A DNA stretch of 41,134 nucleotides, taken from positions 1-41,134 of the forward strand of contig JAFXFT010000195.1 of NCBI GenBank assembly GCA_017513385.1. The letters are read 5' to 3'. Within the stretch, counting starts at the first letter, position 1. The number at the start of each line of letters is the position of its first letter. This document shows positions 5,428 to 31,929 of the stretch, one piece after another. A model generated the notes under the pieces. It was given only the letters and a program-made list of their open reading frames with translations, ran no database searches and was not told the origin of the DNA. The translations under genes were made by a program, and so were the position numbers. This DNA is from Oscillospiraceae bacterium (lineage in GTDB: Bacteria > Bacillota > Clostridia > Oscillospirales > Oscillospiraceae).

Positions 5428-6033
5428 ATGAAAACCGAAATTCTCAAAATCAAGGGCGACTGGCAGGAAGTAGTTGACGACTGCCGAGCAACGGTTAAGA
5501 AGCCGCCTCTTGGTCACGAACCGAGCAGCGAGTTCAAGAAGCGGCTTCTGATCGCGGAACACAGTCCCATCCGAGACATCGTGGTGAAGTTCCGCTGGAA
5601 GAATATTAAATACTGGATTGCGATGCACTGGAAGACCCACACATGGGAGAGCCGTGTGGACACCCAGCGCAACGACCGCCAGAGTCGGTACGACCGAAAC
5701 AAAGCGCCGCAGGAAGCTCCTGTGGATTTCAGCGGCGACCCTAACCTCCAAAACCTGATTGACACATGGAGAAAACGGTTGTGCTATCAGGCCAGCTCTG
5801 AGACGCGGAAGTATGCCGAGGACTTTAAGGTGGCGCTGTACGATGTCGAAGCGGAGATTTCGGACGTTCTCGTGCCAAACTGCGTCTACCGCTGCGGCTG
5901 CCCGGAAAAGGGCATGGGGAAGCCTTGCGGCTGGTTTGATAAGATGGTGGAGAAATGCCCCGACCTTGCCAGTACGGACATTCAGACCCGTTACGATGCC
6001 TACAACCGCATTTTCTGGGGTGATGCGCCATGA
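5428..6033 (+). CDS. divergent ThyX-like (flavin-dependent thymidylate synthase fold) protein
   Basis: AEHSPIRDIVVKFRW..., RQSRY and NLQNLIDTWRKRLCYQASSETRKYAEDF align by eye with ThyX blocks (H.S.lEH..f.F, SQRY, N.R.l.hf..LR.c..AQ.EIR..A). The RHR motif is not conserved (KTH). The ATG at 5428 follows aggggg. Confidence 0.45.
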   Translation: MKTEILKIKGDWQEVVDDCRATVKKPPLGHEPSSEFKKRLLIAEHSPIRDIVVKFRWKNIKYWIAMHWKTHTWESRVDTQRNDRQSRYDRNKAPQEAPVDFSGDPNLQNLIDTWRKRLCYQASSETRKYAEDFKVALYDVEAEISDVLVPNCVYRCGCPEKGMGKPCGWFDKMVEKCPDLASTDIQTRYDAYNRIFWGDAP

Positions 6034-6215
6034 TGTGCCCCTTGTGTTGCAGCGACGATAAAAAGGTAATAGACAGCCGCCCGTTCGGCACCTACCGTCG
6101 CCGGAGATACCAATGCGCCGCCTGCGGCCATAAATGGAACACCATAGAGATCACCAGAGAAGAATACGACGAAATAACAAAGGAGGCTGCCAATGCACTG
6201 CAAATGGGAATATGA
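6030..6215 (+). CDS. NrdR-like zinc-ribbon protein lacking an ATP-cone
   Basis: MCPLCCSDDKKVIDSRPFGTYRRRRYQCAACGHKWNTIE mirrors the NrdR N-terminal MxCPxC...VIDSR...RRRRxCxxCxxRFTTxE. The protein is only 61 aa. Confidence 0.55.
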   Translation: MMCPLCCSDDKKVIDSRPFGTYRRRRYQCAACGHKWNTIEITREEYDEITKEAANALQMGI

Positions 6216-6597
6216 TGAAATCTGTACCAACGATAAAAGCCCGGTCTGCGCGGACTACTGCCCGGTTCCGAACGACCCCGGCCTGTGCCGCTTTGAGGAG
6301 CCGTACACCGACCTCGAATACATCCGCGCCAAACTCGGCGATGCCGAGTTGCTGGCTCAGATCGCCGAAGAATGTAACGAACTGGCCCACGCTTCGCTGA
6401 AGCTGCGCCGGGTGCTGGACGGCACCAACCCCACCCCCGTCACAGAGGAAGAGGCCGTTGCCGCTTTCAGTGAAGAGTATCTCGACCTTATCCTTTGCCT
6501 GCACGTATTCCTGGAGTCGGGCGAAACCCCGGACGAGCTTACGGCGAAACTGCGCCGCTGGTGTGAACGGCTCAAAGCCAAAGAGGCCGGGACATGA
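6193..6597 (+). CDS. MazG-like all-alpha NTP pyrophosphohydrolase domain with an N-terminal Cys-rich segment
   Basis: LLAQIAEECNELAHASLKLRR and EEYLDLILCL resemble the MazG-type EExxE/helix pattern. The SD aaaggagg lies upstream. Confidence 0.4.
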   Translation: MHCKWEYDEICTNDKSPVCADYCPVPNDPGLCRFEEPYTDLEYIRAKLGDAELLAQIAEECNELAHASLKLRRVLDGTNPTPVTEEEAVAAFSEEYLDLILCLHVFLESGETPDELTAKLRRWCERLKAKEAGT

Positions 6598-6791
6598 CCC
6601 CTTTCAGCAGTATCCTATGTGCGGACTGCGCCGGATCCTTTGCAAGGAGATACAGCGTCACGCCGCAGACCGAAACCACCGTGAAAATATCCTGCCGCGT
6701 CTGCGGCAGGATAACGGATGCAAACGTATACGTTATAAGCGAAAAGGAGGTATGCAATGAGAAAATTCATTTACGTCCCTGCGGTGACTGA
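6594..6791 (+). CDS. hypothetical zinc-ribbon-like protein (65 aa)
   Basis: The start is an ATGA overlap. It has two CxxC-like pairs (CADC, CRVC). Confidence 0.55.
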   Translation: MTPFSSILCADCAGSFARRYSVTPQTETTVKISCRVCGRITDANVYVISEKEVCNEKIHLRPCGD

Positions 6792-6805
6792 CCGCCGCTG
6801 ACCCT

Positions 6806-7210
6806 ATGGAAACCGGGCTCACTATGGCCATGCTCTGCGAGTGCGCCAGTAGGAAAGCAGAGCTGGAGGAAGTCAAAGAGAGACTCCGGGAACTCTCCTC
6901 CGTCTATTACCCCAGCGCCGCACAGCTCACCGGCACCCCCGGCGCACACGATGACCACAGCAGCGAAAACGGACCCATCCGCCTTGCGCAGCTCTCCGCC
7001 GTGTACGAGGGTCTGTGCCGGGAACTGGAATGGCAGACCGTGGCCGTTGAGCTGGCCATTGACAGTCTGCCGTCCCTGATGCGCCGCGTCATGCGCTTGT
7101 ATTATATAGATGGAATGGACTTCCCGGACATCGCGCAGGAGATCGGGTATTCCCGCCGCCATACGAAGCGCCTGCATGACCTCGCGGTCGTGAAGCTCGG
7201 AATTGTTTAA
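6806..7210 (+). CDS. ArpU/RinA-like late transcriptional activator (sigma-70 region-4-like HTH)
   Basis: The C-terminal RRVMRLYYIDGMDFPDIAQEIGYSRRHTKRLHDLAVVKL is a region-4-type HTH. It is the last gene of the early arm and is followed by a terminator. Confidence 0.55.
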   Translation: METGLTMAMLCECASRKAELEEVKERLRELSSVYYPSAAQLTGTPGAHDDHSSENGPIRLAQLSAVYEGLCRELEWQTVAVELAIDSLPSLMRRVMRLYYIDGMDFPDIAQEIGYSRRHTKRLHDLAVVKLGIV

Positions 7211-7240
7211 AGCCCCCGAAAGGGGGCTTTTCTTATTTTC
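7209..7240. terminator. bidirectional rho-independent terminator between the convergent early and late arms
   Basis: The stem is aagccccc-gaaa-gggggctt, followed by ttttcttatttt. It lies between the stop at 7210 (+) and the stop at 7233 (-). Confidence 0.85.
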
Positions 7241-7532
7241 GGTACATTTCCAGCATGACCTTTACCTTGGAACGCTTGTCGGTTGCCTTGCCGCACTCCC
7301 ATTCCCAGATGTGATTTGCCCAGCCGTGGTCATCCTCCGGGTGTTCTGCCAGCAGCGCATGAGCCATGCTGTGCAGCATATCCTCGTGTCCAAGCTCCTG
7401 CTTGGCAAGCTCTGCGTAGGTGTCTGCCAAAGCGCGGTTTTCATGCTTATAATGCAGCGCCATTCGGGCATATTCCTCCGCGTCCTCCAACTCCTCCGGG
7501 ATGTGCTCTAAAATCTCGTTGAACGCTTTCAT
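7233..7532 (-). CDS. hypothetical helical protein with a ferritin-like E...ExxH pattern
   Basis: The SD aaggggg lies upstream. The relevant segments are EELEDAEEYARMAL and AKQELGHEDMLH. Confidence 0.6.
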   Translation of the reverse strand: MKAFNEILEHIPEELEDAEEYARMALHYKHENRALADTYAELAKQELGHEDMLHSMAHALLAEHPEDDHGWANHIWEWECGKATDKRSKVKVMLEMYRK

Positions 7533-7544
7533 GTGTTCACCCCC

Positions 7545-7874
7545 TTAACCTTGCATATACTGCCATATCTTGTCTACATCGGCGTCGTGGAGCGTCAGAG
7601 AGCCAGCGCCGGGAATCTCAAAGCTGATGGGGCCTTTTGCGCTGTGGCGCTTCACCGCCTGGTATACCTTGCCCATGTTGATGTCGTCGCCGTCAAAGAC
7701 ACCGAGCATCTTTCCAAGCTCTGTCTGCTGCCAGCGCTTCATGTTCTCCGGCAGCGAAGCGATCAGCAGCGTGGACGCACCGCCGAACACCCATTTCCGC
7801 CAGCCGGGCATATTGTTGATGATCTCCTCGTCTATGTAACGGGCAAGCCCGGACTGCACTTTGTCAATCGTCAT
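7545..7874 (-). CDS. hypothetical protein (109 aa)
   Basis: The SD aggaggg lies 5 nt upstream of the ATG. Confidence 0.65.
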   Translation of the reverse strand: MTIDKVQSGLARYIDEEIINNMPGWRKWVFGGASTLLIASLPENMKRWQQTELGKMLGVFDGDDINMGKVYQAVKRHSAKGPISFEIPGAGSLTLHDADVDKIWQYMQG

Positions 7875-7897
7875 GGTATCCCTCCTGTGTCGTTATT

Positions 7898-7928
7898 CAG
7901 AAAAGGGGAGGGGAGACCCCTCCCCCCC
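7898..7928 (-). terminator. rho-independent terminator downstream of 7940..8398
   Basis: On the minus strand the stem is ggggagggg-tct-cccctcccc, followed by ttttctg. Confidence 0.75.
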
Positions 7929-7939
7929 CTTGCTGTGGA

Positions 7940-8398
7940 TCAGGTGCCGGCGGTGGGAGCCGTCCAGCTATTAAACTGGGGCATGGGCGCCGGGCAGATG
8001 CTGTCGATGGGCACCACGGTCTTGGTGAGAGCCATGAGAGTGGCGATGTTGCCCTGCATGCAGGAGATGTTGGCGGTCACCTGAGCGTTTACGACGGCCT
8101 GCTGGGAAAGCTGGGACTGGACGTAATCGAACTTGTGCTCCATGTAGTCGCGGAGCTTGCCGACCTCGCTCAGCGCGTAGAAGTTGGCGTCGCGGAGCTT
8201 CACTTCCGTTTCCAGTTCCGCGATACGGGCGCTCTGCCCGGCCTCGTACCGGTTAACGGCCATGTTCTCACTGCAGCCGCAGTTGCCGCCGCCCAAAAGC
8301 CCGCCAAAGAGACCGCTGTTGAGAGCGCCGAGGGAAGTGCCGATGATGCCGGTGGTGAGAGCAGCGTTGCCCTTGCCGAGGGATGCAAATTCAGCCAT
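7940..8398 (-). CDS. moron-like protein: Gly-zipper N-terminus plus coiled coil plus Cys-containing tail
   Basis: The SD aaaggagg lies upstream. The N-terminus is GIIGTSLGALNSGLFGGLLGGGNCGC, followed by heptad-like ARIAELETEVKLRD. Terminators flank the gene on both sides. Confidence 0.7.
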   Translation of the reverse strand: MAEFASLGKGNAALTTGIIGTSLGALNSGLFGGLLGGGNCGCSENMAVNRYEAGQSARIAELETEVKLRDANFYALSEVGKLRDYMEHKFDYVQSQLSQQAVVNAQVTANISCMQGNIATLMALTKTVVPIDSICPAPMPQFNSWTAPTAGT

Positions 8399-8450
8399 AG
8401 ATCATTCCTCCTTTTAATGTTTTTTTGCCTTATGGCTGAATCAATCGTAC

Positions 8451-8496
8451 AAAAAAATAAGACCGGGCCTGTCCAAGTCAAGGACAAGCCCGGTCT
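8451..8496 (-). terminator. strong rho-independent terminator after 8501..8698
   Basis: A 15-bp stem (agaccgggcctgtcc / ggacaagcccggtct, one mismatch) is followed by a T-run on the minus strand (tatttttttg). Confidence 0.85.
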
Positions 8497-8500
8497 AAAT

Positions 8501-8698
8501 TCAGTACATATTCTTTTGTCGTATGCTTTTCAGTGCGTTGTTGACTGTCCCCCGGCTTACATAGAGCTCCGCGGCTATATCTTCGATAGCCCAGCCCCGC
8601 CGGAAATAAAGGTCGAATACGGCGCGTTCCCGGTCGGTATACCATGGGTTTGCGTTCATGCTTTCCAGTTGGCTCACGGAATAATGAAATTTCGGCAT
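8501..8698 (-). CDS. small sigma-70 region-4 / LuxR-like HTH protein (65 aa)
   Basis: The HTH segment is TDRERAVFDLYFRRGWAIEDIAAELYVSRGTVNNALKSIRQK. Confidence 0.6.
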   Translation of the reverse strand: MPKFHYSVSQLESMNANPWYTDRERAVFDLYFRRGWAIEDIAAELYVSRGTVNNALKSIRQKNMY

Positions 8699-8731
8699 AG
8701 ACCCTCCCGGCCCATGCCTACCACCGCGTTG

Positions 8732-9436
8732 TCAGTTGATGAGCGCAGCCCACGTCATGGGGCCGCAAATGCCGTCCGCGTCAAGACCATGGTCGCGCTG
8801 AAAGGAGGTAAGCGCGGCATAGGTCTCGTCGCCGTATTCGCCGTCGGGGCCATATCGCGGCAGCCGCTTGCCCCACTTGTACTGCAAGAGGAGCTGCATA
8901 CTCAGCACCGCCCCGCTGATCATGCCGGGACTGAGCATCGGCGTTGTGTCGGTCACCGGCTCCTCGTAGGGACGGGCATTGCTCGTCCCCTCCCCCGCAT
9001 ACCGCAAAACACAATCCCATGGATAGTTATAATATCCCCGGATGTTGATCTCGCCGCCGGTCTGGTCGCCGCTTCTGCCGCCCTTGATGGTGCCAAGCTC
9101 GTTGATGCTGGCCTGTACGACTTTACCGCCGCCGATAAACATGGCCGTGTGATTCTTCTCGTGCAAAAGAACGTCCCCGGCCAGCAGCCCGGCACCGGTT
9201 TTAAGGTTTACCTGCTTGGTCACATCCCGAAAACCGGTTTGTGAAAATACATACTTCATGTTCCCGGTGTAGGTAGCGCCCTTGGTTTTGACGGGTACGC
9301 CTGCCTGTTCCCATGCGGAGATCAGCAGCGAGGAACAGTCATAGTCCGGCCCCCAGCGGCTTATCTGGTCATAGCCATGGGAGCTGTCAGCGGCAATACT
9401 GACAGCCCAATCCATGGCAGCTTGAATCTTGCTCAT
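8732..9436 (-). CDS. endolysin: NlpC/P60-Amidase_5-type cysteine peptidase plus C-terminal PG_binding_1 domain
   Basis: The catalytic region reads HGYDQISRWGPDYDCSSLLISAWEQAG ... GDVLL...HTAMFIG (Cys/His). The C-terminal part reads YGDETYAALTSFQRDHGLDADGICGPMTWAAL. Confidence 0.85.
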   Translation of the reverse strand: MSKIQAAMDWAVSIAADSSHGYDQISRWGPDYDCSSLLISAWEQAGVPVKTKGATYTGNMKYVFSQTGFRDVTKQVNLKTGAGLLAGDVLLHEKNHTAMFIGGGKVVQASINELGTIKGGRSGDQTGGEINIRGYYNYPWDCVLRYAGEGTSNARPYEEPVTDTTPMLSPGMISGAVLSMQLLLQYKWGKRLPRYGPDGEYGDETYAALTSFQRDHGLDADGICGPMTWAALIN

Positions 9437-9439
9437 GCG

Positions 9440-12400
9440 TTACCACCTCCAGTCGTTCAGTTGGGTCTTGTCTGCTTTGAAGAGGTTATACATCTCATTG
9501 GCATACTGTTCCGGCCAGCCCTGACTCATAAGGGCAGCCACGATTTTTTGCCGCACGTTGCCGAGAGACTTTCCGTTGGCGTCCCGGTCAGACTCAATAG
9601 TGGCGTAGGCTTCGTAGAACTCCGCGAACCGCTCTGCGCTGTAACCGCGCTCCCGGGCCATTCGGTATTTTTGCGGGTAGTTGCTCCCCGCATCGAAGAA
9701 CAGCGGGACGTACTCGTCTGCGTCCTCACCGGCAGCCTTGGCCACATACTTGACCCGCTGCCACACGGCCACGGATTCGTTGTCACCCCACGGCTGCAGC
9801 TTCTGCGCCGCGCTGTAAAGGCCGATGTACTTGGCAGGGTCTTTGGCCTCCAGCGCTTCGCGCACCCAACTGTCCGGTTTGTAATTGGGGTCTACTTCAA
9901 GCATGGCTTTCGCCTTGCCCACCGCGTAGATATTCTCGATGGCCTTGGCCTTCTCGTCGTTGCTCATGTTCTTATACTGAGCGCTGCCGATAAGCGCCTC
10001 AGCCAGTTCAAGACGGGTAGATCCCATGGTGCGGTTGAACTGCTCGTATTCCTCGGCGGTCAGGTGCCGTTTGCCGGTGCTGTTGCCCTCGGCGTCTCTT
10101 GTAGTGATCTCGTCGCTCTGGGCGAAGCGCTGCGGGAATACGCTGGTATAGCCGAGGTCATAGAGTCTCTGCAGCTCGCCGTCCGCCGCCGTGCTGCGGT
10201 CGGTGGAGACGTAAGAGGGATTGAGGAACTGATTGAAAAGGTTGCCATCGCCGTAATCCTGCGTTCTGCCCCAAGCGTCGATGTAGTCCACCTGATTGTA
10301 CTCGCCGGGGAGCTTGTTCATAAGAGTGCCCACGAACCGCTGACCCGTCGGGTCGAGAACACCGGCGTGCTCGTCGTTGTAGCGGTAGGTCTCCTCTCTG
10401 CCAGTCTCGGTGCTGCGCTCAATCTGACCAAAGAGCGTAGGAATGAACTGGCTGAGATAGCTCGTCGCCGCCGTAGAAACATAGGCCATAAGACCTGCGT
10501 CACCGTACTTGCCTGTCTCCAGCATATCCTGAACACCCGACAGCATGGACATCTCCACAATGGGGTCGGCAATGTCCAGCATGGAGTCAATGCTCTCACG
10601 GAGTGTGAGGCCCTTGTCCTGCATAGCGTCCATGATCTCAGCACCAACGAACAGAGACACCGCACCCGGAGCCAGCCAGTCGATGGTGTAGTTCCTGTCA
10701 CCGACGGTCAGAGCGTAGCTCTGCTGACCCTGCAGGGAGTCGAAACCTGCCTGCTTATCGTCCTCGTCCTCGCTTCCACTGAGGATGCCCTGAGAGCGGA
10801 GGAACGCGCCAAGCAGCATAACGCCCGTGCCGGTGAGACCTGCAGCAAGCGAGTCAATGGCCTCGGCGGCAGACTTCCCAGCCTTAACGTCGTTGTGCAT
10901 CTGAACGACACCCTTGATGATGCCCACGGGCGAGTAGTCGATGGCACGAGCCAGAACGTTGGCCGGGGTCTTCTTGAACGGAAGAACACCCTCCACAAAA
11001 AGATTCGCTGCCTTTGCGACACCGCTGCCGGTATCGTTGCTCTGGGCTGCCCTGCGCACGCCGGAAGTTATCTTGTTAAGTCCTTCACTCAGCCAGTTGG
11101 CATCGCGGTATGTGGCTTTGGCTGCTTCCTGAATGGCCACTTCACGCGCTCTGGCCACCTGCTCAGCGGTCATGGTGCCGTTGGTGAAGTCAGCAGCCGT
11201 GAAACCGTTGGCCTTGAGATACATGGCCAAAGCAGAAGAATAGACGGGCTTGGAGAACAGAGTGTCGCCCTTCTCCATAGCGGTACCCACGGCCTTGCGA
11301 TAGGCTTCCAACAGACGGTTATTGAAGATGGCACGCTCTTTATCCACCTCACTCATAATGTCATCGCGGTACTTGCCGCCCGACTGGATGGCATCCTCCA
11401 CGTTGGCGAAGTCCATACCAGCGACCTGCAGCAGAGCCCGGTCAGAAGCCGAGGCTCGGTTCAACACGGCCTTGGTGCGCTCCATTCCTTCGGGCAGGAA
11501 CTGTTCGCCTACCGTGGCCAAAGCGTTCTTCACAACCCGGAACGGCACAAAGCCAGCGTTACCCGCAATGTTCCGTACCTGAGTGCGGAAGTTGCCGAGC
11601 ATGGCAAGGTATCTCCACGCCTGCAGCTTCTCCTTCCACGTCGCTGGCATCTGAGACGCGATGTCCTTGGTGATATTGGTCATGGCCTCCTTGGCCGCAG
11701 CCTCGTCACCTTTCACCAGAGCGTCCCGATAGGCCTCCAGCATAGTGGAGTCAATCTCAAGGTTCGGTGCCTTTTGGCCGAACTTAGCCGCAAGGCCCTG
11801 CTGCATATTCTCGACGCTCTTCACCACCATGTACAAACGGCCCTCCGGGGAGAGCTTATTGATGATGGACACAGCCTGCAAAGCCTGTGCGGTGGTCTTG
11901 GCGTTCTCGATGAGAAGAGATGCAACGTTCATGGCCGCGATGGTCCCCTCCGGCTTCCCGGAGTTGACCGCGTGGTTATACAGCGTAACGCCCAGAGCAG
12001 TAATGGACTTGGAGGACTGACCGTTGCGGACTGCGCTTTCGTACTGCTTCATAGCCTCGTTCCAGCCAAGGCCGGTGATGGTCTTTTCTGCACCGGCCAC
12101 AGCCTCTGCGTCACTGTACGGGATGCGGGAGAACTTGCCCTCCGTAACGTCCTTCTGCAGCGCCGCCGCAAAGTCATTGGGTGTGATCTTCGCATTAGCC
12201 AGCGTGGAGGATGTCTTGGGCGTGAGCTGACCGTTGATGCCCTCGACGGGTACGTTCACCGGCCCGCGGCCGCGCTCGGCCTGAGTCTCCTGCTGCGCCT
12301 GTTCGTTGATAGGATGGAACGGCCCGGTAGGCTGCTGTTCCGCACCCAAAAGCGCGTCAACCATAGGGTTGCTCGGCTGCGCGGGGGCCTCCTTGACAAG

Positions 12401-14128
12401 CGGGCTGTTTTGTGGTAGGGTATCAACAACAGAGGTTGTTGCGATTTCCGGTTCGGCCGTAAACGCTGGGGCAGTAGCATCAGTGGAGCGCATCGCCTCT
12501 GGTTTATTTTGGGCCATGTATGCGGAAACGATGTACGTGGTCTTTTTCTTTGTGTCTGGTACTGCTTCAACCACATAATAAGTCCCGTTTACTGCCTTGC
12601 TGAATACAACGGTCTTTGCCGGGTGGTTTCGTCCTTTTTCGTCTGGGGAAACGTAAGAGGTGGTTGTGCCGCCGTCTACTATATCGTCGTAGTTATCCAG
12701 AACATATTGGATCCGCCCAAAGTCGTTTAGGTCTTTCATGCTCTGGTCGGCGTTTCCCTGCGGCCCGTGCCGGTCATAGATATGCTCAGCCATGCGCTGC
12801 TCAATAACCGTTTTATTACCGGTGGTGTCTACCCCGGTAATTCTTTTTATGTCAGCGGCTGCCCGTTTTGAAACAGGCTTGAGCTCATAGCGGCCCCGAT
12901 TAGTGCCACGGTTTGCAACAGACTGTTCCATGAACTCTACAAGCCCATCGTCTACGGAATTTTGGTATTCCTCAATGACACGCTGCTCCACGGGAGTATG
13001 CTGCGTCGGGTCGGTGTTTACGCTGGTGCTGTCCTCCTCAATAATAAGAGGAGACTTTTGCTCCTGCTTAGGTGCTTCGGCCTTCTGCTCCTGCTCGATG
13101 ATAAGCGGAGACTTCCAGCCAGGATACTCGCTAAGACCGCCGGTAGCCAAGTCGCCAGCTGCGCCAATGACAGCGCCCAACATAGCGGAGTACAGCGCTT
13201 CATTCCCAAGCCCTTTGCGCCCCTCGGCTGTGCCGTAACTTTCCTTTGCGGCTTTGCCCTCGTCATAGATGGCCTTGAGGAACGGACTGAGCGCCGCGGT
13301 CAGCGCCTCCTCGCCACCCTCGCCCGCTGCATTGGCAAGGCGCTGCAAAGCCCACTGTGCGGTTTCGTTGCCGCCCGCCCTTTTCACAAGCCCCTTTACG
13401 AGGTCGTCCGTCAGACTCTTGCCGTAAATCTTATCCAGACCACCTGTGAGCTTCTCAATGCCCGCTTCAACACCGGCGGAGGCGGCACCGTAGGCAAGGG
13501 CTTCATTGAGCGTAGCGCCATTTTGTTCGGCCTCGTAGGCACCCCCGCCGAAAGCGCCAGCAGCTGTGACGGCCATCGTAGGCAGCTTTGTCAAAGCGGA
13601 AATAGCGACATCCGTTGCGAGGCCGGAACCGCCTTCAATGGCCTGCAGAGCGAACTGTCCCACCTTGCCAGTGCCGTCATTGGCCCGCTGACTTACGGTT
13701 TCATATTCTTTCCGGGCTTCGTCCGCTTTGTTGTAAAGCCAGTCGAAGGGGGTTTTATCTTCGTTGGCACGACCACTGGCGGCTCCAACCCTCTCCGCAA
13801 GCTTACCAGCAGCTTCAAACAGGTTAGCTTCTTTGTCGAGCATACCGAGCTGCAGAGCGTCCATGGTTTTGGCCGTTCCGGTCTCCAGCGTATTGCGGAC
13901 ACGCTCATACCATGGTGTATTGTTGCCGGTGGCCTTGTCCAGTTCCGGGGTCCGCACGGGCTTATAAGATGGGACGCTATTGGGCAGCAACGTTAGCTCG
14001 CTGTCATAGTTCTTTGCTTTGCCGGCGGAGCCGTTGGATGCTCCGCCCTGTTTCTGCATATAGCTGGGCTTTACACGGTTGCCTGCAACCGCTTTTTCGT
14101 CCAGAACCAAAAGATTTTTAGAGGCCAT
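9440..14128 (-). CDS. 1562-aa virion internal / ejection-type polyvalent protein with an embedded nuclease-like module
   Basis: It is the largest ORF and is translationally packed between tail genes and the endolysin. It has a Gly/Ala-rich N-terminal third, a module with AEHIYDRHG...TYYVVEAVPDTKKKTTYIVSAYM, and a long helical C-terminal part. Confidence 0.6.
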   Translation of the reverse strand: MASKNLLVLDEKAVAGNRVKPSYMQKQGGASNGSAGKAKNYDSELTLLPNSVPSYKPVRTPELDKATGNNTPWYERVRNTLETGTAKTMDALQLGMLDKEANLFEAAGKLAERVGAASGRANEDKTPFDWLYNKADEARKEYETVSQRANDGTGKVGQFALQAIEGGSGLATDVAISALTKLPTMAVTAAGAFGGGAYEAEQNGATLNEALAYGAASAGVEAGIEKLTGGLDKIYGKSLTDDLVKGLVKRAGGNETAQWALQRLANAAGEGGEEALTAALSPFLKAIYDEGKAAKESYGTAEGRKGLGNEALYSAMLGAVIGAAGDLATGGLSEYPGWKSPLIIEQEQKAEAPKQEQKSPLIIEEDSTSVNTDPTQHTPVEQRVIEEYQNSVDDGLVEFMEQSVANRGTNRGRYELKPVSKRAAADIKRITGVDTTGNKTVIEQRMAEHIYDRHGPQGNADQSMKDLNDFGRIQYVLDNYDDIVDGGTTTSYVSPDEKGRNHPAKTVVFSKAVNGTYYVVEAVPDTKKKTTYIVSAYMAQNKPEAMRSTDATAPAFTAEPEIATTSVVDTLPQNSPLVKEAPAQPSNPMVDALLGAEQQPTGPFHPINEQAQQETQAERGRGPVNVPVEGINGQLTPKTSSTLANAKITPNDFAAALQKDVTEGKFSRIPYSDAEAVAGAEKTITGLGWNEAMKQYESAVRNGQSSKSITALGVTLYNHAVNSGKPEGTIAAMNVASLLIENAKTTAQALQAVSIINKLSPEGRLYMVVKSVENMQQGLAAKFGQKAPNLEIDSTMLEAYRDALVKGDEAAAKEAMTNITKDIASQMPATWKEKLQAWRYLAMLGNFRTQVRNIAGNAGFVPFRVVKNALATVGEQFLPEGMERTKAVLNRASASDRALLQVAGMDFANVEDAIQSGGKYRDDIMSEVDKERAIFNNRLLEAYRKAVGTAMEKGDTLFSKPVYSSALAMYLKANGFTAADFTNGTMTAEQVARAREVAIQEAAKATYRDANWLSEGLNKITSGVRRAAQSNDTGSGVAKAANLFVEGVLPFKKTPANVLARAIDYSPVGIIKGVVQMHNDVKAGKSAAEAIDSLAAGLTGTGVMLLGAFLRSQGILSGSEDEDDKQAGFDSLQGQQSYALTVGDRNYTIDWLAPGAVSLFVGAEIMDAMQDKGLTLRESIDSMLDIADPIVEMSMLSGVQDMLETGKYGDAGLMAYVSTAATSYLSQFIPTLFGQIERSTETGREETYRYNDEHAGVLDPTGQRFVGTLMNKLPGEYNQVDYIDAWGRTQDYGDGNLFNQFLNPSYVSTDRSTAADGELQRLYDLGYTSVFPQRFAQSDEITTRDAEGNSTGKRHLTAEEYEQFNRTMGSTRLELAEALIGSAQYKNMSNDEKAKAIENIYAVGKAKAMLEVDPNYKPDSWVREALEAKDPAKYIGLYSAAQKLQPWGDNESVAVWQRVKYVAKAAGEDADEYVPLFFDAGSNYPQKYRMARERGYSAERFAEFYEAYATIESDRDANGKSLGNVRQKIVAALMSQGWPEQYANEMYNLFKADKTQLNDWRW

Positions 14129-14142
14129 GGGCTACCCCCTTA

Positions 14143-14964
14143 TCAGCCGTATTTCGCCTGCCATGCCCGGAAATTCTCCGTGGCCTGATTGGCCGCCGTA
14201 GTGACCATGGATTCATCCACGCGGATGGCCTCATTGTAGAGGGCAAGCGCCCGGTCTGCCTCATTGGCGGCAATGGCATCGGCAATGGCTTTCTGATACT
14301 GCGCTGCAAGGTCGGCTCTCTTCGCCTCCACGTCAGCAAGGGCTTCACTCTCTGCCTGACGTATGGCGGAAATGCTGCTCACAAGGGCGTTATTCTGCGC
14401 CAGAGCCGCCTGAGAACCCGCGCCGGTATTCATGCCAGCCGCCGCCGCTCTTTCGTTGAACGCGGCCTGAGCCACCGCAGACTGAGCCGCAGCGGCATTG
14501 GCCGCCTGCTGGTACTGAGGCGCGATGGTTGCGGACTGCCTGTCCAGCGTGGCCACGTTGGCATCATACGCCGTCTCCAGCGCAGCCTTGCGTCTCTGCT
14601 CGTTGGCGTCATACATAGCGTTGATGTAGTCGGCCTGAGACGTGGCCGCGCGAAGCGTCGCAGCCTTGTAGGCGTTGGAGCCGCCGGAGCTTGCTCTATA
14701 ACTGCCGTCGCCTGCGGCAGGGTCTCCTATTGTAGGATCAGCAGGGAAACCGCCGGTGTTCGTCACATTCACCGTTCCGCTGTTCGTGGTGGTTTCCTGT
14801 AGGCTGGGGACGCGCTCGGCATAGGCTGCCCGCAGGGCTGCGCCCATTTCCTGCGCGTTTTTCTGTGCCGTTTCCGCCGCGGAAAGCGGGGAAGCGTTGG
14901 GCGCAGCAACGGTGCCGGTGCCCGTGGTGGTTGTGCGTGAGTGGAATTTATCTGTAGCTGCCAT
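14143..14964 (-). CDS. Ala/Gln-rich coiled-coil virion (internal) protein
   Basis: Assigned by position between the receptor-binding protein and the giant protein, and by low-complexity AQ-rich helices. Confidence 0.5.
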   Translation of the reverse strand: MAATDKFHSRTTTTGTGTVAAPNASPLSAAETAQKNAQEMGAALRAAYAERVPSLQETTTNSGTVNVTNTGGFPADPTIGDPAAGDGSYRASSGGSNAYKAATLRAATSQADYINAMYDANEQRRKAALETAYDANVATLDRQSATIAPQYQQAANAAAAQSAVAQAAFNERAAAAGMNTGAGSQAALAQNNALVSSISAIRQAESEALADVEAKRADLAAQYQKAIADAIAANEADRALALYNEAIRVDESMVTTAANQATENFRAWQAKYG

Positions 14965-16303: not shown

Positions 16304-18097
16304 TTATTTTGCGTAACCCGTCTCCCGAACGCGGATGTCCGCCGCCAGCACCGTGGCCGTGGTTTCAGGCTCCGCACTCTGGAAGATGAGTTTGTAATAG
16401 GTATATTTCTTTGCTTTGATGCGCAGCCGCTTAATCTGCGGTCGGCTGCTGGTGATGAAAGAGAAGTTTGAAAAGTCCACATTGCCAAAGGAACTGATGC
16501 TCTTGGCAACGACCTTCGCTGGGAAATCGCTCTTTCGGTCTGTCTTTATGGTGATCTCCACGTGGGAGCGGCTTTCCGGTTTAACAGACACCCACACCAT
16601 CGACGTGTACTTGCGCATATAGTCCGAGCCGAAGTCCATGCTTCCGCTCTCCCAATAGGCAGGGATAGGTTCCCCGCAGTCGGTACGGGCGCGGTCGGTG
16701 ACGCAAAGCACCCTGCCGTCCGAGGTGCCGCAAAAAAGCTCACCACGGAAATTGCACATGGTCTGCGCATCGAAATTGGTGTAGATGTACCAGGCGTCCG
16801 CCGCGTAGTTGTGGACAATCGCCATCCGGCCATGACAGACGTAATACTCCTGCGCGTCGTTGTCGTCCCAGCACTTGCAGTTCTCCACCACAAAGCTGCG
16901 GAGCGCGGTCTGCACCCGGTCGCTGATGCGCTTGGCTAAACGCTCGTCGGCGGTAACATACGTAGAGCTTCCCCGCCATTCGTAGATGTCCTCGCCAAAG
17001 ACCGTGCGCGGATAGTTCAGTACAAGTTGCGCCTGTCCGGGCGCTGCGTTGCCGATGGCCTTATTGACGGGCGTCACGTTGAATGTAGCAATGGTAGAGC
17101 CGTCGGCCAGCGTTACGCTGCCGTAGACGATGGAGTAGGCACCGTTGGTCTTAAAGGCCATGAGCCGTCCGCTGTGGCGGATAAGTGCCGTCACAGGCGT
17201 ATTGCTCTCGCCAATCTGTGTCTCGTTCATGTCGGGGAAGTAGTCCGCCCGACCGTTGCCGTCCGTGTCCAGACCGGAGTAAAACACCTCGTTGCTGCCG
17301 TCTCCGTAGAGGAACACGCGGCTGTCCTGAGTGCCGTTATAGAGTTCGGCGTAGCGCATCTTCTCCACTTGGCTACGGAAGTTGGTGGGGTGCGTCCAGC
17401 CGATTTCTATGGTATTGATACCTTTTTCCGGTACCGTCGCAAAAGTCACGCTGCCCGCTGCCAGATCTACCGTATAGCCCGTGACAGCCGCGCCGGTGAC
17501 AAGGTTCGTCACATAGTCCACCGAGGCAATGTTCTGTTCCGGCAGGATGAAGGTGAGGGCGGAGCCGTCCGGGGAGAACTGAGCGCGGCGCAGACCGTTG
17601 AGCTTGTTCACCTGTTCCAGAGACGTACCGCCGCCGCCGGGGACAGAAGCCGTCACAACTAAAGGCCGGTAGCCTTCCACGGCGCTGAGCGTTTCGCCGT
17701 CGTAAACCTGATAGCTCCTGCCGTCCAGAATGTAGGCAGAGCCGCCAAAGCCAAAAATAAAGACGTCGCCCGCAGTGCTCACAGCACCCAGCTCCGTCCT
17801 GTTCCAGTCGGCCCCGTCAAAGAGCCTATAAAGTTTCCCATCGCAGGCAGCGAGGACGCACTCAGTCTCTGCCACCATGCCGCTCCAAAGCCGCTTCACC
17901 TCGCCGGTGCCGATGGTGTCCATCAGCTCCGTACCGGGGCGACGGCGGAGGTTTCCGTCGCGGGTGATGCGCCAGTTTTCCATAACGGCGGCCTCGCCCA
18001 TTTTCAGCTTGGTGTCGCCGTCGCGGCTCTGGTTCAGACCCAGCCACTTCTTGATAGGATAGATTTTCTCGTTGGTGGTAGCGGTGATCGTAGCCAT
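16304..18097 (-). CDS. large tail structural protein (nozzle / tail-tubular-B-like by position)
   Basis: It is 597 aa and beta-rich, and it follows a 148-aa adaptor-like gene as in T7/P22-type tails. I recognise no enzymatic motif. Confidence 0.45.
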   Translation of the reverse strand: MATITATTNEKIYPIKKWLGLNQSRDGDTKLKMGEAAVMENWRITRDGNLRRRPGTELMDTIGTGEVKRLWSGMVAETECVLAACDGKLYRLFDGADWNRTELGAVSTAGDVFIFGFGGSAYILDGRSYQVYDGETLSAVEGYRPLVVTASVPGGGGTSLEQVNKLNGLRRAQFSPDGSALTFILPEQNIASVDYVTNLVTGAAVTGYTVDLAAGSVTFATVPEKGINTIEIGWTHPTNFRSQVEKMRYAELYNGTQDSRVFLYGDGSNEVFYSGLDTDGNGRADYFPDMNETQIGESNTPVTALIRHSGRLMAFKTNGAYSIVYGSVTLADGSTIATFNVTPVNKAIGNAAPGQAQLVLNYPRTVFGEDIYEWRGSSTYVTADERLAKRISDRVQTALRSFVVENCKCWDDNDAQEYYVCHGRMAIVHNYAADAWYIYTNFDAQTMCNFRGELFCGTSDGRVLCVTDRARTDCGEPIPAYWESGSMDFGSDYMRKYTSMVWVSVKPESRSHVEITIKTDRKSDFPAKVVAKSISSFGNVDFSNFSFITSSRPQIKRLRIKAKKYTYYKLIFQSAEPETTATVLAADIRVRETGYAK

Positions 18098-20767: not shown

Positions 20768-21832
20768 TTAATTACCCGCAGGAGGGGTGGTGTATACGGC
20801 GTCAAAGGACGCAATAGCGCTGTGGAGTTTGCCGGTCTGCTCGGCGTAGGCACGAACCTTGGTGTTCTTGGTGATGGTGATCGCAGCGCTGTAGGTCTGA
20901 GCGGTAGAGCTGGTCTTGGGGTTGGAGCCGTCCACGGTGTACTTGATGGTGCCGGTACCGGAGATGCTCACGCTGTTGCTGTTCTGGGTAATGGTGGGCG
21001 CAGCCAGACCGCCGGTGCTGTAGACATAGATGCCGTCTGCCTTCTGAGCCATGACGAAGCTGTCGTAGCGGCAAAGACCCTCAAGCAGCACACCGGCGAT
21101 GCCGGGGGCGTCGTCGTGAGAACGAAGCATATGCATCTTGGAGGGGTCGGCGGAAGCGTTCTTGTACTTCACGATGAACTCGACGCCAGCGGGCATACGG
21201 CTCTTGGGAATAGCCACGATGGGGCAGCCGTTAAGCTCGGCGATCTTGCCCTGCACGATGGCCTTGGAAGTCCAGTTCTGGTTGTTGCCCAGCTCGGTAG
21301 CCAGCTTGCACTTCACGCTCACGTCGGTACGGACGAAGATGACGCGGTTCTCAGCGGGAACAGCGGCGTCGTCCATCTCGGCGCAGGCGTTCAGCATGGC
21401 CTCGATGATGGTGCTCTTGGTCAGAGCGGAGCCCACCATACCCAGACCGGCACCGTTGGCCCAGGTCTTCAGGCGGTAGGCGTCGTTCTCGGGAACGTAA
21501 CGCTCGTCCCACATCTGCTTCAGGAAAGCGGAAGCCTTCTTGATGAACATCTGGTCCTGGGTGTTGGTAGCGTCGATGGTCTTGGTGAAAGCACGCTTAC
21601 GAGTCAGAACGTAGGTGTTCAGCTCGTCCTGAACCTCGGTAGGAGTGCCGAAACGGTTGGCGGACGCGGTGGCGTCGTAGTCGTTCAGCTCGTCGGTCAG
21701 GATGGTCCACACGTTGATGGAGTTGACGCCGTTCCAGTCGTAGTTGTGACCGCACCAGGCGTCGGTCAGGGAGCGCTGCTTAAAGCGCTCGTCCAGCTTG
21801 GTAGCGTATTTGGTAGCGAGATTGATAGCCAT
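20768..21832 (-). CDS. major capsid protein with a C-terminal Ig/Fn3-like (CHB_HEX_C-type) decoration domain
   Basis: Assigned by its position after the scaffold, its very strong SD and its 354-aa size. The C-terminal ISGTGTIKYTVDGSNPKTSSTAQTYSAAITITKNTKVRAYAEQTGKLHS matches the Y.TDGS.P motif. Confidence 0.8.
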   Translation of the reverse strand: MAINLATKYATKLDERFKQRSLTDAWCGHNYDWNGVNSINVWTILTDELNDYDATASANRFGTPTEVQDELNTYVLTRKRAFTKTIDATNTQDQMFIKKASAFLKQMWDERYVPENDAYRLKTWANGAGLGMVGSALTKSTIIEAMLNACAEMDDAAVPAENRVIFVRTDVSVKCKLATELGNNQNWTSKAIVQGKIAELNGCPIVAIPKSRMPAGVEFIVKYKNASADPSKMHMLRSHDDAPGIAGVLLEGLCRYDSFVMAQKADGIYVYSTGGLAAPTITQNSNSVSISGTGTIKYTVDGSNPKTSSTAQTYSAAITITKNTKVRAYAEQTGKLHSAIASFDAVYTTPPAGN

Positions 21833-30909: not shown

Positions 30910-31929
30910 TTATTGAATATCTATACTATACAATCCTTCGCGGATTTTAGCCTTATGCGCATCCCGCAAATGCGTATACACGTCTTTCGTCGTCTGAATC
31001 TGCGCATGCCCGAGCAGCTCCTGTGCGTCACTGTCAGATACCCCGGCCTCGAAGAGCATCACCGTGTAAGAGTGCCGGAGCTGATGAGGGGTGCAGGTTA
31101 CCCCGGTAAGCTCCTTGTACTTTGCCCATGCGCTTTGGCATTGCGCGTCGGTGTATGCCTCTCCTCGGAAGTTCTTGAATACCGGCCCCTTGCCCTTTTC
31201 AACGCGCTCCAAGAGCTTATCAAGGATAGGGACTACACGAATACCGGCCTGTGTCTTGGGGGCTTTCACGGCTTCCCTGCGGCCTCCTACGATGGACAGG
31301 CTTTTGTTGACTGTTATCGTCCGGTTTTCCGTGTCCACGTCGTCCCATGTGAGCGCCCGCAGCTCACCACGGCGCAGCCCGGTATACAGCGCCCAATAAG
31401 CGAAGTCCCCGAACGGGAGATCATAAGAGGCCTTTATAGTGGCGATGTCCTCGGCACTTGCCATGTCCCGGGCCGCCTTATCAAGCCCTTTCGGCACTAC
31501 CAACTCCCGCGCCGGGTTTAGATCGGCATAGCCCATCTGTACGGCGTAACGGCAGATCAGGTTGATGACCATAAGTTGAGTGCGGGCGGTCTTGTCGGCC
31601 ATGTGGTGGGCTTTCACGGCTCGATTGATAAATACGCTTATGTCCTTGGGGCGCAGCTCCTTTATGCTGATGCTGCCAAGCGCCTCAACCGCCCGGTTCA
31701 TGGCGGGGACATAGCCCTTGTGGGTGGAGGCTGCCAGCTTCGGCCCTGCATCCTCCCACCACTCAGCGGCGACCGCTGCGAATGTCTGGCCGCTCTCGGC
31801 CTTTTCGGTGTAGTCGGCGATCTTGCGCAGTACCTCCGCTTTGGTCTTGCCATAGACAACCTTGCGCTTGCCGCCGGTGATATCCCGCGGCAGCTCTTGT
31901 TGATAAAGGCCATCTTTCCGCCGTTTCAT
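30910..31929 (-). CDS. int: tyrosine-type site-specific integrase
   Basis: The catalytic region reads YTGLRRGELRALTWDDV ... HQLRHSY ... LLGHAQIQTTKDVYTH (R, HxxR, Y). An N-terminal SAM-like arm/core-binding region is present. Confidence 0.9.
   Translation of the reverse strand: MKRRKDGLYQQELPRDITGGKRKVVYGKTKAEVLRKIADYTEKAESGQTFAAVAAEWWEDAGPKLAASTHKGYVPAMNRAVEALGSISIKELRPKDISVFINRAVKAHHMADKTARTQLMVINLICRYAVQMGYADLNPARELVVPKGLDKAARDMASAEDIATIKASYDLPFGDFAYWALYTGLRRGELRALTWDDVDTENRTITVNKSLSIVGGRREAVKAPKTQAGIRVVPILDKLLERVEKGKGPVFKNFRGEAYTDAQCQSAWAKYKELTGVTCTPHQLRHSYTVMLFEAGVSDSDAQELLGHAQIQTTKDVYTHLRDAHKAKIREGLYSIDIQ

Follow-up and report, generated by a model that had tools for sequence, protein, structure and literature searches.

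A giant protein of a temperate phage of Clostridia is probably an internal virion protein with an exchangeable RNase-like module

What could be the function of a single protein, the gene of which occupies 11.4% (4689/41134) of a phage genome and comes last in the virion module? The gene in question (P0001; 9440..14128 on the minus strand, as are all features given below unless stated otherwise) belongs to a window, that is, the whole stretch of DNA that was analysed, of 41,134 nucleotides, which is an entire contig. The original prediction, which put the share of this gene at 11%, took its product for an ejection or core protein of the T7 gp14-16 type. We arrive at a similar answer, namely, that the product is the large ejection protein, internal to the virion, of a ~41-kb short-tailed temperate phage that infects a Clostridia host, and we put the probability of this reading at roughly 0.7. 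Four sections most likely make up the protein: an N-module that is conserved and rich in Gly and Ala, an effector cassette that can be exchanged, a conserved helical carrier of ~850 residues and a variable tail.

The open reading frame is real and its ribosome-binding site is strong: the frame runs from an ATG through 1562 codons to a TAA stop and is open throughout (open reading frame list and translation), homologues are found in both word-indexed and exhaustive searches, and a Shine-Dalgarno sequence, AAGGGGG (14135..14141), can be read 6 nt 5' of the ATG. An open reading frame of 1013 aa on the opposite strand (9377..12418, plus) overlaps the gene; we read it as a shadow frame because all homologues and the Pfam domain are in the minus-strand frame. 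Both ends of the contig lie within one and the same 27-bp tandem-repeat array, so that the contig probably represents a complete phage genome that was broken by the assembler within the repeat. The phage is temperate and encodes an integrase.

The gene closes a virion module in which all genes run in the same direction and which includes the terminase, a P22-like portal, the scaffold, the capsid, fibre and tail proteins, and it is indeed, as predicted, the last structural gene ahead of the endolysin (8732..9436; Pfam ELLD, NLPC_P60 (ELLD/NlpC_P60) and PG_binding_1, PHROG endolysin families), the ATG of which lies 3 nt past the stop codon of the 1562-aa gene and the Shine-Dalgarno sequence of which, GGAGGTGG, is embedded in the last codons of that gene. 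Directly upstream, with its stop codon 14 nt from the ATG, is the gene for an Ala/Gln-rich protein of 273 aa (14143..14964) that had been described as a coiled-coil protein; the adjacency stands, and the coiled coil is weakly supported by a Pfam match to CCDC93_CC (E 0.0055) that falls under the cut-off. This protein, a possible candidate for a small ejection-protein partner, has no match among PHROGs, NCBIfam or the PDB, and neither it nor the upstream proteins of 345, 94, 148 and 117 aa match the internal virion proteins IVP-A, -B and -C or the tail genes of ten reference loci.

Could the 1562-aa protein be the tape measure of a long-tailed phage? Such a role would fit its size, its richness in helices and its location ahead of the lysis genes, and some of its metagenomic relatives carry the automatic labels 'Myoviridae sp.' or 'Siphoviridae sp.'. 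However, the ten adjacent genes covered by the family scan (three small ORFs, located between those for the capsid and the tail, lay outside it) include no tail tube, sheath, tape-measure or chaperone-pair family, and no tape-measure family matches the protein itself; related contigs of ~40 kb share the same layout without a tail tube; and, next to the P22-like portal, the nearest isolated phages, judged by a 597-aa tail-region protein that itself has no match in a PDB sequence search, are those of the Bacillus megaterium Page group (genus Pagevirus), with a portal annotated as 'podovirus-type'. Given also that the conserved region of the protein is homologous to podovirus IVP-D-type proteins, as detailed below, the tape-measure reading, which the original prediction had likewise dismissed, is effectively refuted, and its probability is negligible. 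The location of the gene at the end of the virion module is retained in close and distant related phages alike. In Bacillus phage Page, gp15 is homologous to the 597-aa protein, and gp20 (1679 aa) is strictly syntenic with our gene, being the last large gene ahead of the holin/endolysin; Page gp20 shows no detectable similarity to the present family or to the IVP-D profile.

How is this large protein organised? The N-terminal leader (aa 1-85; 13874..14128) is predicted to be disordered (AF2 pLDDT below 50). It precedes the Gly/Ala-rich N-module (aa ~131-335; 13124..13738), which is delineated by composition, conservation and AF2 helices of low confidence; here, Gly and Ala make up 36% of the residues, compared to ~20% elsewhere in the protein, in accord with the predicted Gly/Ala-rich N-terminal part. 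In the alignment of this module, E270-G271 are invariant and E273-E274 are conserved (GEGGEE), and the module is kept at 30-41% identity in many distant homologues, for example, P0040 (aa 203-368). The duplicated linker that had been noticed in the translation, SPLIIEQEQKAEAPKQEQKSPLIIEE (aa 340-365; 13034..13111), was recovered by motif scan and alignment, with SPLIIEQ at aa 340 and SPLIIEE at aa 359, and a downstream linker, NSPLVKEAPAQPSNPMVDALLG (aa 575-596; 12341..12406), identified by motif scan and by alignment of the junction in relatives, holds two further occurrences of (S/N)P(L/M)xx. In close relatives, module borders are marked by this motif or one related to it, and its distribution is limited to this close clade. 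A reading of the motif as a cleavage signal finds no protease domain to go with it in the protein. At the other end of the protein is a variable tail (aa 1446-1562; 9443..9793), with the alignment of distant homologues ending at aa ~1445.

The C-terminal ~970 aa are mainly helical in the AF2 model (DSSP), which bears out the prediction of about 1000 aa of helical sequence. The two AF2 models have a modest overall confidence (pLDDT 63 and 57); in the C-terminal region, it peaks in the variable tail and just ahead of it, over aa ~1310-1550 (mostly 74-92, with short dips near aa 1440 and 1510). Foldseek comparison of both models with the PDB yielded only generic helical-repeat and transporter matches (best E 0.27 and 0.067), so that no solved structure resembling either model was found. 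Searches with the whole protein against PHROGs and NCBIfam returned nothing, the only Pfam match at E <= 1 is PBECR3, no protease domain was found in the protein, and PDB sequence and profile searches with P0001, the carrier-family profile and the IVP-D profile gave chance matches only.

The largest section is a backbone that is conserved family-wide (aa ~597-1445; 9794..12340), as mapped by BLASTP against 120 homologues, and is mostly helical (AF2, pLDDT 63). A word-indexed search identified 291 homologues, and in an exhaustive search, this region is conserved in 7005 protein clusters (50% identity) with lengths of 800-3974 aa; in the best 150 of the 7005 cluster representatives, it is located toward the C-terminal end. 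The additional payload in the family ranges from 0 to ~3000 aa. No model in Pfam (the LPD families included), PHROG or NCBIfam covers the region. The relatives come mostly from Oscillospiraceae/Clostridia genomes, including prophages of cultured isolates, among them Lawsonibacter (L. celer NSJ-47, L. hominis NSJ-51) and Pseudoflavonifractor (sp. Marseille-P3106, HCP28S3_F10). Within the backbone, three elements stand out. The motif RYLAMLGNFRTQVRNIAGN (aa 839-857; 11558..11614) has invariant L, T, R, N and G columns in the family alignment; the motif LPFKKTPANVLARAIDYSP (aa 1049-1067; 10928..10984), one of the two peptide patterns with which 102 loci were retrieved, has invariant P, P, A, N, S and P columns; and the conserved, Gly-rich, moderately hydrophobic helix AAGLTGTGVMLLGAFLRSQGIL (aa ~1091-1112; 10793..10858) reaches the highest hydropathy of any segment in the protein (1.41 across 19 residues, under the classical threshold for a transmembrane helix). 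This helix is a candidate membrane-active segment.

So where does this backbone come from? Its closest known counterparts are IVP-D-type proteins, namely, Synechococcus phage P60 gp34, Syn5 gp45, Pelagibacter phage HTVC011P gp34, Desulfovibrio phage ProddE gp034, Roseobacter phage CRP-403 gp34 and Prochlorococcus phage P-SSP7 gp16; these reference proteins are related to each other by BLASTP and all occupy the position of T7 gp16. In an hhalign comparison, the family profile aligned with a seven-protein IVP-D profile over 515 columns with a probability of 99.8% (E 2.2e-28). Single templates gave 97.2% for HTVC011P gp34, 97.5% for P60 gp34, 97.2% for the ProddE IVP-D and 79% for Syn5 gp45; P-SSP7 gp16 alone was weak (3.7%, E 0.012), in the equivalent region. 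By comparison, four giant helical virion proteins used as negative controls, T7 gp16, N4 gp50, VT2-Sakai orf71 and Page gp20, stayed at 0.1-0.5%. In the alignments, RYLAMLGNFRTQVRNIAGN is matched with ...NALLSNPKTHIINLTSN of HTVC011P gp34, and, in IVP-D-type proteins, LPFKKTPANVLARAIDYSP is matched with IPFIRTPANLMLNVVDRTP and the hydrophobic helix with ATGTVLLTLGSILHREGVITG.

Searches of another kind lead to the same genes. The full protein had no tblastn match in 50,697 phage records at 1e-5; a permissive tblastn search with the backbone alone produced 12 matches, all on the same part of it, and ten of these are annotated as internal virion protein (D), from Autographiviridae or related pelagiphages, such that the tblastn matches and the hhalign templates converge. 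Foldseek against BFVD retrieved polyvalent proteins along with the 'internal virion protein' of cyanophages S-CBP3, S-RIP1 and S-CBP2. On the strength of these profile, sequence and predicted-structure comparisons, the segment aa ~830-1413 (9890..11641) is classed as a homologue of the internal virion proteins (IVP-D) that occupy the gp16 position in non-coliphage Autographiviridae. Combined with the P22-like portal and the Page-group affinity, this homology upholds the prediction of an ejection or core protein.

The resemblance to the marine proteins takes several forms: both are large, mostly helical and encoded late in the virion module, both share the motifs (L/I)PFxxTPAN and LxNxxTHxxNxxxN and the Gly-rich hydrophobic helix, and in both, a variable middle separates a Gly-rich N-region from a core that is conserved toward the C-terminus. 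The two N-regions themselves are not detectably similar (hhalign probability 1.3% for the N-module against the IVP-D N-termini). Furthermore, the reference phages are lytic, T7-like and infect diderm hosts, whereas the present phage is temperate and its contig was assigned to the bin of an apparently monoderm gut Clostridia genome; they have recognisable IVP-A, -B and -C and tubular tail proteins A and B, whereas no IVP-A, -B or -C was detected here; and the reference proteins lack Pfam domains, whereas the present protein has PBECR3.

The connection to T7 proper is another matter. Neither T7 gp16 alone nor a profile of T7, gh-1 and phiKMV exceeded a probability of 0.1-0.4% in hhalign, BLASTP revealed no similarity to the gp16 of these three phages either, and T7 gp16 was not detectably similar to the marine IVP-D profile. 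Thus, of the T7 link that had been proposed, the homology to IVP-D-type proteins holds, whereas similarity to T7 gp16 itself and upstream homologues of IVP-A, -B and -C were not detected. Judging from the annotation of the marine relatives, T7 gp16, the last of the internal proteins encoded in the virion module and likewise large and helical, would have an equivalent role; it contains a lytic transglycosylase (SLT) domain, which the present protein lacks. T7 gp16 is the only IVP-D known to have been studied mechanistically, and owing to the dissimilarity, extension of the T7 mechanism to the present family relies on the equivalent place of the gene and on HMM links from the literature that we did not reproduce. 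Specifically, P-SSP7-type proteins have been linked to the T7 IVP-D (PMC4819975), and the links of that 'extended IVP-D family', which reportedly reaches the IVP-D of T7, epsilon15 and N4 (PMC4819975), were not recovered with the small profiles used here. Among the marine relatives, Syn5 gp43/44/45 have been described as the capsid core (PMC5850374).

Does the backbone then do anything other than bring its passenger into the capsid? The C-terminal region could serve solely as a packaging or anchoring handle for the effector, as in MuF fusions or T4 Alt, with no role in a DNA conduit and with DNA entry into the monoderm host independent of the carrier. The host does appear to be monoderm: Spo0A is present in its bin (68% complete), and BamA and LpxC were not found there. 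A 2022 review (PMC8954989) regards ejection proteins as characteristic of podoviruses that infect Gram-negative hosts, hydropathy revealed no classical transmembrane helix in the protein, and the N-terminal payload differs widely among family members, as would befit a generic handle. However, the Autographiviridae homologues occupy the gp16 position of the core/ejectosome operon, and ~850 strongly conserved residues with invariant motifs exceed the needs of a packaging tag. Also, the existence of matches of ~880-890 aa that consist nearly entirely of the backbone (P0166 and P0231, which may be truncated gene calls) suggests an autonomous function of the backbone. All in all, we consider a mere handle to be unlikely and retain the ejection protein as the preferred reading, with the proviso that a tunnel spanning the periplasm is unneeded in an apparently monoderm host, so that the role of the carrier may differ there.

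The predicted compact alpha/beta module turned out to be a recognisable domain, PBECR3 (PF18812; aa 419-542; 12503..12874), matched with E 1e-10 and 42 bits, above the gathering cut-off of 30, over profile positions 3-111 of 115. The AF2 confidence is high across aa ~370-545 (pLDDT 75-93), where helices are followed by four long strands. The conserved residues of the family are present, including H449, R453, H454, G455, NGTYYVVEA (514-522) and VSAY (534-537); in an alignment of 28 PBECR3 domains, H449, H454 and S535 each represent the predominant residue of their column, at a frequency of 80% or more, and in the model, the two His residues are in a helix and S535 is in the last strand. For PBECR domains, which occur in injected polyvalent proteins, an endoRNase activity is predicted, and it is a prediction even for the family as a whole (PMC5512222); from conserved sequence positions we infer that the present module is a putative RNase. 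Its fold would be expected to be of the BECR type (colicin D/E5, RelE, EndoU).

The module is part of a cassette (aa ~375-580, gene nt 1122-1740; 12389..13007) that amounts to an effective indel of 624 nt, as defined by blastn and protein alignment. The closest relative, P0002, has a backbone that is 91% identical and lacks the cassette: the flanks align with the P0002 gene at 81% and 89% and abut there with a 5-nt overlap. The cassette is missing also in P0004 and P0005 and replaced in other relatives, and in more distant ones, ADP-ribosyltransferase, LPD3 or PBECR5 modules take the place of PBECR3. Nature thus provides a pair of genes with and without the RNase-like cassette, with ~89% identical backbone DNA.

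An alternative is that the protein is an external tail component (a needle, plug or tail tip) that stays on the particle, with a vestigial RNase-like domain or one that binds RNA or other nucleic acids. It is encoded by the last gene of the tail region, beside genes of the receptor-binding type (a Flg_new repeat protein and a collagen-like fibre), and the PBECR domain of phage Mu MuF-C is considered to be inactive (PMC5512222). Nevertheless, the homology is to internal rather than external virion proteins, there are no beta-helix, fibre or lysin domains of the tail-tip type, PBECR3 has kept its conserved His and Ser residues, and the long helical architecture predicted with low confidence is typical of ejection proteins; an external location accordingly appears highly improbable.

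The preferred ejection-protein reading fits a design that is already described, and the present gene is a well-documented new example of it. Like polyvalent proteins (PMC5512222), this is a large protein in a virion context with a predicted RNase of the PBECR family and predicted co-injection with DNA, and its orthologues rapidly shuffle ART-PolyVal, MuF_C, LPD3, LPD23 and PBECR5, including the pairs MuF_C+ART-PolyVal, MuF_C+PBECR5 and LPD3+PBECR3. It is encoded among the virion genes of a phage, and its orthologues vary in domain architecture; of the at least two repertoire domains expected of a polyvalent protein, one, PBECR3, is recognised here, the N-module and carrier being conserved and uncatalogued, and the homologues clearly qualify. 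Hence the label 'polyvalent' in the original prediction agrees with PBECR3 and with the repertoire domains swapped into the same slot in homologues, whereas 'multi-effector' overstates the case for the present copy, which has only one catalogued effector domain. Unlike in the catalogued polyvalent proteins, more than half of the protein is a conserved carrier without a Pfam model, and in the text of Iyer, Burroughs, Anand, de Souza and Aravind 2017 (PMC5512222), the words 'internal virion', 'gp16' and 'ejection' are absent. From the other side, IVP-D homologues are known to carry passenger domains bound for the cytoplasm (Hardies et al. 2016, PMC4819975), and mass spectrometry detected the Stx podovirus polyvalent protein phi24B gp47 in virions, for which a role in ejection was proposed (preprint 10.64898/2026.04.10.717836). 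The same principle, an ejection scaffold with enzymatic passengers, applies to N4 gp50 (the virion RNA polymerase), Pseudomonas phage H66 gp60 and VT2-Sakai orf71/phi24B gp47; these carriers differ from ours in their diderm hosts and their passengers, and for N4 gp50 and VT2-Sakai orf71, no sequence or profile similarity to the present family was detectable.

The scenario for the infection cycle that we favour, in which packaging and ejection are inferred, can be outlined as follows. The protein would be made late and packaged in the capsid near the portal via its carrier part. At adsorption, it would leave the particle via the portal and tail, either before the DNA or together with it, whereupon the carrier, through the Gly-rich hydrophobic helix and the PF-K-TPAN motif, might engage the cytoplasmic membrane and help to form or line a conduit for DNA. 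The N-terminal half, including the RNase-like module, would reach the cytoplasm as a passenger, and the module could then cut host or defence RNA before phage genes are expressed. The homologues in cultured Lawsonibacter and Pseudoflavonifractor make packaging, ejection and the RNase target testable at the bench.

What, then, does this locus tell us about the family? A guess based on synteny has become an assignment based on homology, 7005 clusters of nameless gut-phage proteins are tied to the ejection-protein lineage of T7-like marine phages, and such a protein is now placed in phages of apparently monoderm Clostridia. More tentatively, and with the odds leaning against it, the carrier may represent an extensive branch of IVP-D-type ejection proteins that no family model covers and that has spread into temperate podoviruses of monoderm Clostridia. 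If that is the case, ejection of proteins in the style of T7 would be not an adaptation to the diderm envelope but a general device for translocation of protein and DNA, and the N-module and core would enclose an open 'payload slot' that allows nearly any enzyme to be brought into the cytoplasm ahead of the genome.

The gene for P0001, the 1562-aa protein under study, is an open frame of 1562 codons with an ATG start (9440-14128, minus strand), preceded at 6 nt by the Shine-Dalgarno sequence AAGGGGG on the same strand and separated by 14 nt from the stop of the 273-aa gene before it. The endolysin ATG follows the P0001 stop codon (TAA) after 3 nt (window positions 9434-9450), and the last three codons (W-R-W) of the P0001 gene make up the endolysin Shine-Dalgarno sequence, GGAGGTGG, so that translational coupling of the two genes is probable. 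The endolysin combines ELLD/NlpC_P60 and PG_binding_1 domains; the original observation of a 1562-aa ORF situated just before the endolysin stands, with a Shine-Dalgarno sequence of the strong type. On the other strand, the gene is overlapped by a 1013-aa ORF (9377-12418, plus strand), which we take to be a shadow frame of the coding strand, which is GC-rich. The position of the P0001 gene is conserved in related phages, as seen in the synteny comparison.

The four parts proposed from the sequence, namely a Gly/Ala-rich N-terminal part, a doubled SPLIIE(Q/E), a compact module and a helical region, are all present. In the AF2 model, a predicted disordered leader (aa 1-85) precedes the other parts, and the C-terminal ~970 residues are mainly helical. 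The N-module (aa ~131-335, delineated by alignment; 36% G+A) contains a conserved GEGGEE motif and is 30-41% identical to its counterparts in many distant homologues. Translation and motif scan place SPLIIEQ and SPLIIEE at aa 340 and 359; the linkers (aa 340-365 and 575-596) hold four copies of (S/N)P(L/M)xx in total, a motif restricted to the close clade of P0001. Between them lies the compact module (aa ~370-545), carried on an exchangeable cassette that comparison of relatives delimits to aa ~375-580. The word-indexed search yielded 291 homologues, and in the BLASTP map, drawn against the 120 listed and complemented by alignments, the backbone, or carrier (aa ~597-1445), is conserved in every homologue, with 41-43% identity to proteins of 2200-2600 aa, and is followed by a variable tail (aa 1446-1562).

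So what is the carrier? It has no matches among Pfam, PHROG or NCBIfam models or PDB sequences, and its AF2 model (pLDDT 63) has no structural neighbours in the PDB. When aa 597-1450 were compared exhaustively by HMMER with 1.84 billion cluster representatives, 7005 proteins were detected at E <= 1e-3, including 3214 at E <= 1e-30; the best 150 of the 7005 are ~800 to 3974 aa long, with the match always towards the C-terminal end. In BFVD, the model matches polyvalent proteins from metagenomes (E 1e-49 to 1e-28), proteins named 'large polyvalent protein associated domain' and, from the T7-like cyanophages S-CBP3, S-RIP1 and S-CBP2, the 'internal virion protein' (E ~1e-8, TM ~0.4). A permissive tblastn search with the backbone produced 12 matches, all to the same ~200 residues, ten of which are annotated internal virion protein (D) from Autographiviridae or related pelagiphages. 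The best match (E 3e-5) is a 1121-aa protein of Podoviridae sp. ctQWt234, placed in the same IVP-D-type family by its BLASTP matches to six reference proteins. This 'hypothetical protein' (MW202801, locus 5649-9014) is encoded immediately before the endolysin in a 40-kb podovirus that also has an integrase, a 'phage stabilization protein' of the P22 type and an acetyltransferase resembling IVP-A.

[quoted passage not shown] The reference genes found by tblastn lie in the gp16 position of T7, flanked by a gp15-like gene and the tail fibre, and their products are related to one another in BLASTP comparisons. The profile of the P0001 family aligns with a profile of seven such proteins at hhalign 99.8% (E 2.2e-28; 515 columns, aa ~830-1413) and with individual members, namely P60 gp34 (97.5%, E 6e-12), HTVC011P gp34 (97.2%, E 3.6e-11), ProddE IVP-D (97.2%, E 4e-11), Syn5 gp45 (79%, E 1.6e-5) and, weakly but in the same region, P-SSP7 gp16 (3.7%, E 0.012); a review assigns Syn5 gp43/44/45 to the capsid core (PMC5850374). 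The alignment pairs RYLAMLGNFRTQVRNIAGN of P0001 with ...NALLSNPKTHIINLTSN of IVP-D, LPFKKTPANVL with IPFIRTPANLM, and the Gly-rich hydrophobic helices TGTGVMLLGAFLRSQGILSG and TGTVLLTLGSILHREGVITG. Four control giant helical virion proteins (T7 gp16, Page gp20, VT2-Sakai orf71 and N4 gp50) reach only 0.1-0.5%, so the signal is no artefact of helical composition; the link of T7 gp16 itself to the family was not reproduced in hhalign, even with a T7/gh-1/phiKMV profile. Judging from these profile comparisons, the carrier is homologous to internal virion proteins of the gp16 position, and the ejection/core reading, originally framed as shared topology, becomes one of a homologous carrier. That P0001 is an external component of the tail appears quite unlikely.

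The compact module is readily identified: PBECR3 (PF18812) matches aa 419-542 (E 1e-10, 42 bits; Pfam cut-off 30). Across 28 aligned domains from homologues, H449, R453, H454, G455, NGTYYVVEA (514-522) and VSAY (534-537) are conserved. The AF2 model of aa ~370-545 (pLDDT 75-93), with helices followed by four long strands, fits a BECR core and the PBECR configuration described as 'His in the N-terminal helix plus C-terminal Ser/Thr' (PMC5512222); RNase activity and its target are predictions. The cassette is a clean indel. In the gene of P0002, the closest relative, which is 81% identical to that of P0001 at the DNA level up to gene nt 1121 and 89% from gene nt 1741 on, the two flanking segments abut with a 5-nt overlap and the cassette is absent, as it also is from the homologues P0004 and P0005. 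In P0006 and P0011, the same slot holds a divergent PBECR3, in P0003 different content, and in more distant homologues LPD3, MuF_C + ART-PolyVal, MuF_C + PBECR5, ADPrib_exo_Tox or LPD23. The homologue P0009 is 90% identical to P0001 over the first 600 residues, PBECR3 cassette included, with a far less similar carrier (45% full length), the reverse of the P0002 pattern; from these mosaics, recombination at the linkers is evident.

P0001 belongs to an already known class of protein. Polyvalent proteins and PBECR domains were defined by Iyer et al. (2017; PMC5512222), whose text makes no use of the terms 'internal virion', 'gp16' or 'ejection'. Hardies et al. concluded that internal virion proteins 'variably host ... 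domains destined for the cytoplasm', as in N4 gp50, H66 gp60 and VT2-Sakai orf71 (PMC4819975), and in a 2026 preprint mass spectrometry detected the polyvalent gp47 of phi24B among the virion proteins, where the authors suggest that it acts as an ejection protein (10.64898/2026.04.10.717836).

The genomic setting is that of a podovirus-like phage. The contig, one of 291 in a bin that is 68% complete, has the same 27-bp tandem repeat at both ends (8.9 copies at 1-240 and 12.5 copies at 40794-41131; 90-92% matches), encoding a 9-residue unit, about TGDYSAATN. The end array lies within an ORF that starts at 40452, contains a DUF7666 domain and runs off the contig, with the 5'-open frame 1-456 as its possible continuation. 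Most likely, the assembly broke inside this array, so that the 41.1-kb contig probably represents a phage genome in full, either circular or circularly permuted, and the estimate that the P0001 gene takes up 11% of the genome holds. The head genes encode small and large terminase subunits, a P22-like portal, a scaffold and the major capsid protein (20768-21832, minus strand; phrog_422, E 5e-43). At its C-terminus, the capsid protein bears an Ig-like CHB_HEX_C_1/Fn3_assoc domain (aa 285-343), which probably serves as an integral decoration domain. Also present are genes for a collagen-like fibre, a virion structural protein of 597 aa and a protein with Flg_new repeats. A tyrosine integrase (30910-31929, minus strand; Phage_integrase E 3e-25, plus central and SAM-like N domains) marks the phage as temperate by gene content; the DnaB helicase (39169-40455) and the Sak annealing protein (37511-38110) map to the other arm. 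Of the contig genes scanned, none matched a tail-tube, sheath, tape-measure or chaperone family, in line with the initial claim, and a tape-measure role for P0001 is extremely unlikely. Among 50,697 phage records, the 597-aa protein (16304-18097, minus strand) is closest to those of the Page group of Bacillus megaterium phages (~40 kb, genus Pagevirus; E 5e-61 to 7e-51), with 28-30% full-length identity to gp15 of Page, Pony, Pookie and Pascal. For the Page portal, the annotation reads 'podovirus-type'. Page gp20 (1679 aa), like P0001, is encoded last before the lysis genes; its similarity to P0001 or to IVP-D proteins is undetectable.

With a probability of about 0.7, we infer that P0001 is a packaged and ejected carrier that delivers an RNase-like passenger. 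The protein would be made late, packaged by way of the carrier and, at adsorption, expelled via the portal and tail; the carrier would then engage the membrane, and the N-terminal half would reach the cytoplasm, where the passenger may act on host or defence RNA ahead of phage transcription. The bin encodes Spo0A (contig C121:2344-2655, E 3e-45), and Omp85/BamA and LpxC were not found in its 68%, which is consistent with a monoderm host of a spore-former lineage, linked to the phage via binning. Because monoderm cells lack a periplasm that would need bridging, the main rival is plausible, namely that the carrier is a packaging handle with no role as a conduit; we consider this improbable compared to delivery by ejection.

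In a pattern scan that covered a single genome from each species, 102 loci were located, mostly in MAGs of Oscillospiraceae or other Clostridia (within the bin's own family, a homologue occurs in 6 of 150 other species' genomes); the few in MAGs labelled Treponema, Bacteroidales, E. coli and others are probably mis-binned ~40-kb phage contigs. Some loci are embedded in large contigs from cultured isolates, namely Pseudoflavonifractor sp. Marseille-P3106, P. phocaeensis, Lawsonibacter celer, L. hominis and Hominiventricola filiformis, and the proteins of three of these carry PBECR3, LPD3 or both. The interest of P0001 lies in the monoderm host setting, in a large family without a model, in a natural cassette-plus/cassette-minus pair and in cultured lysogens that are to hand.
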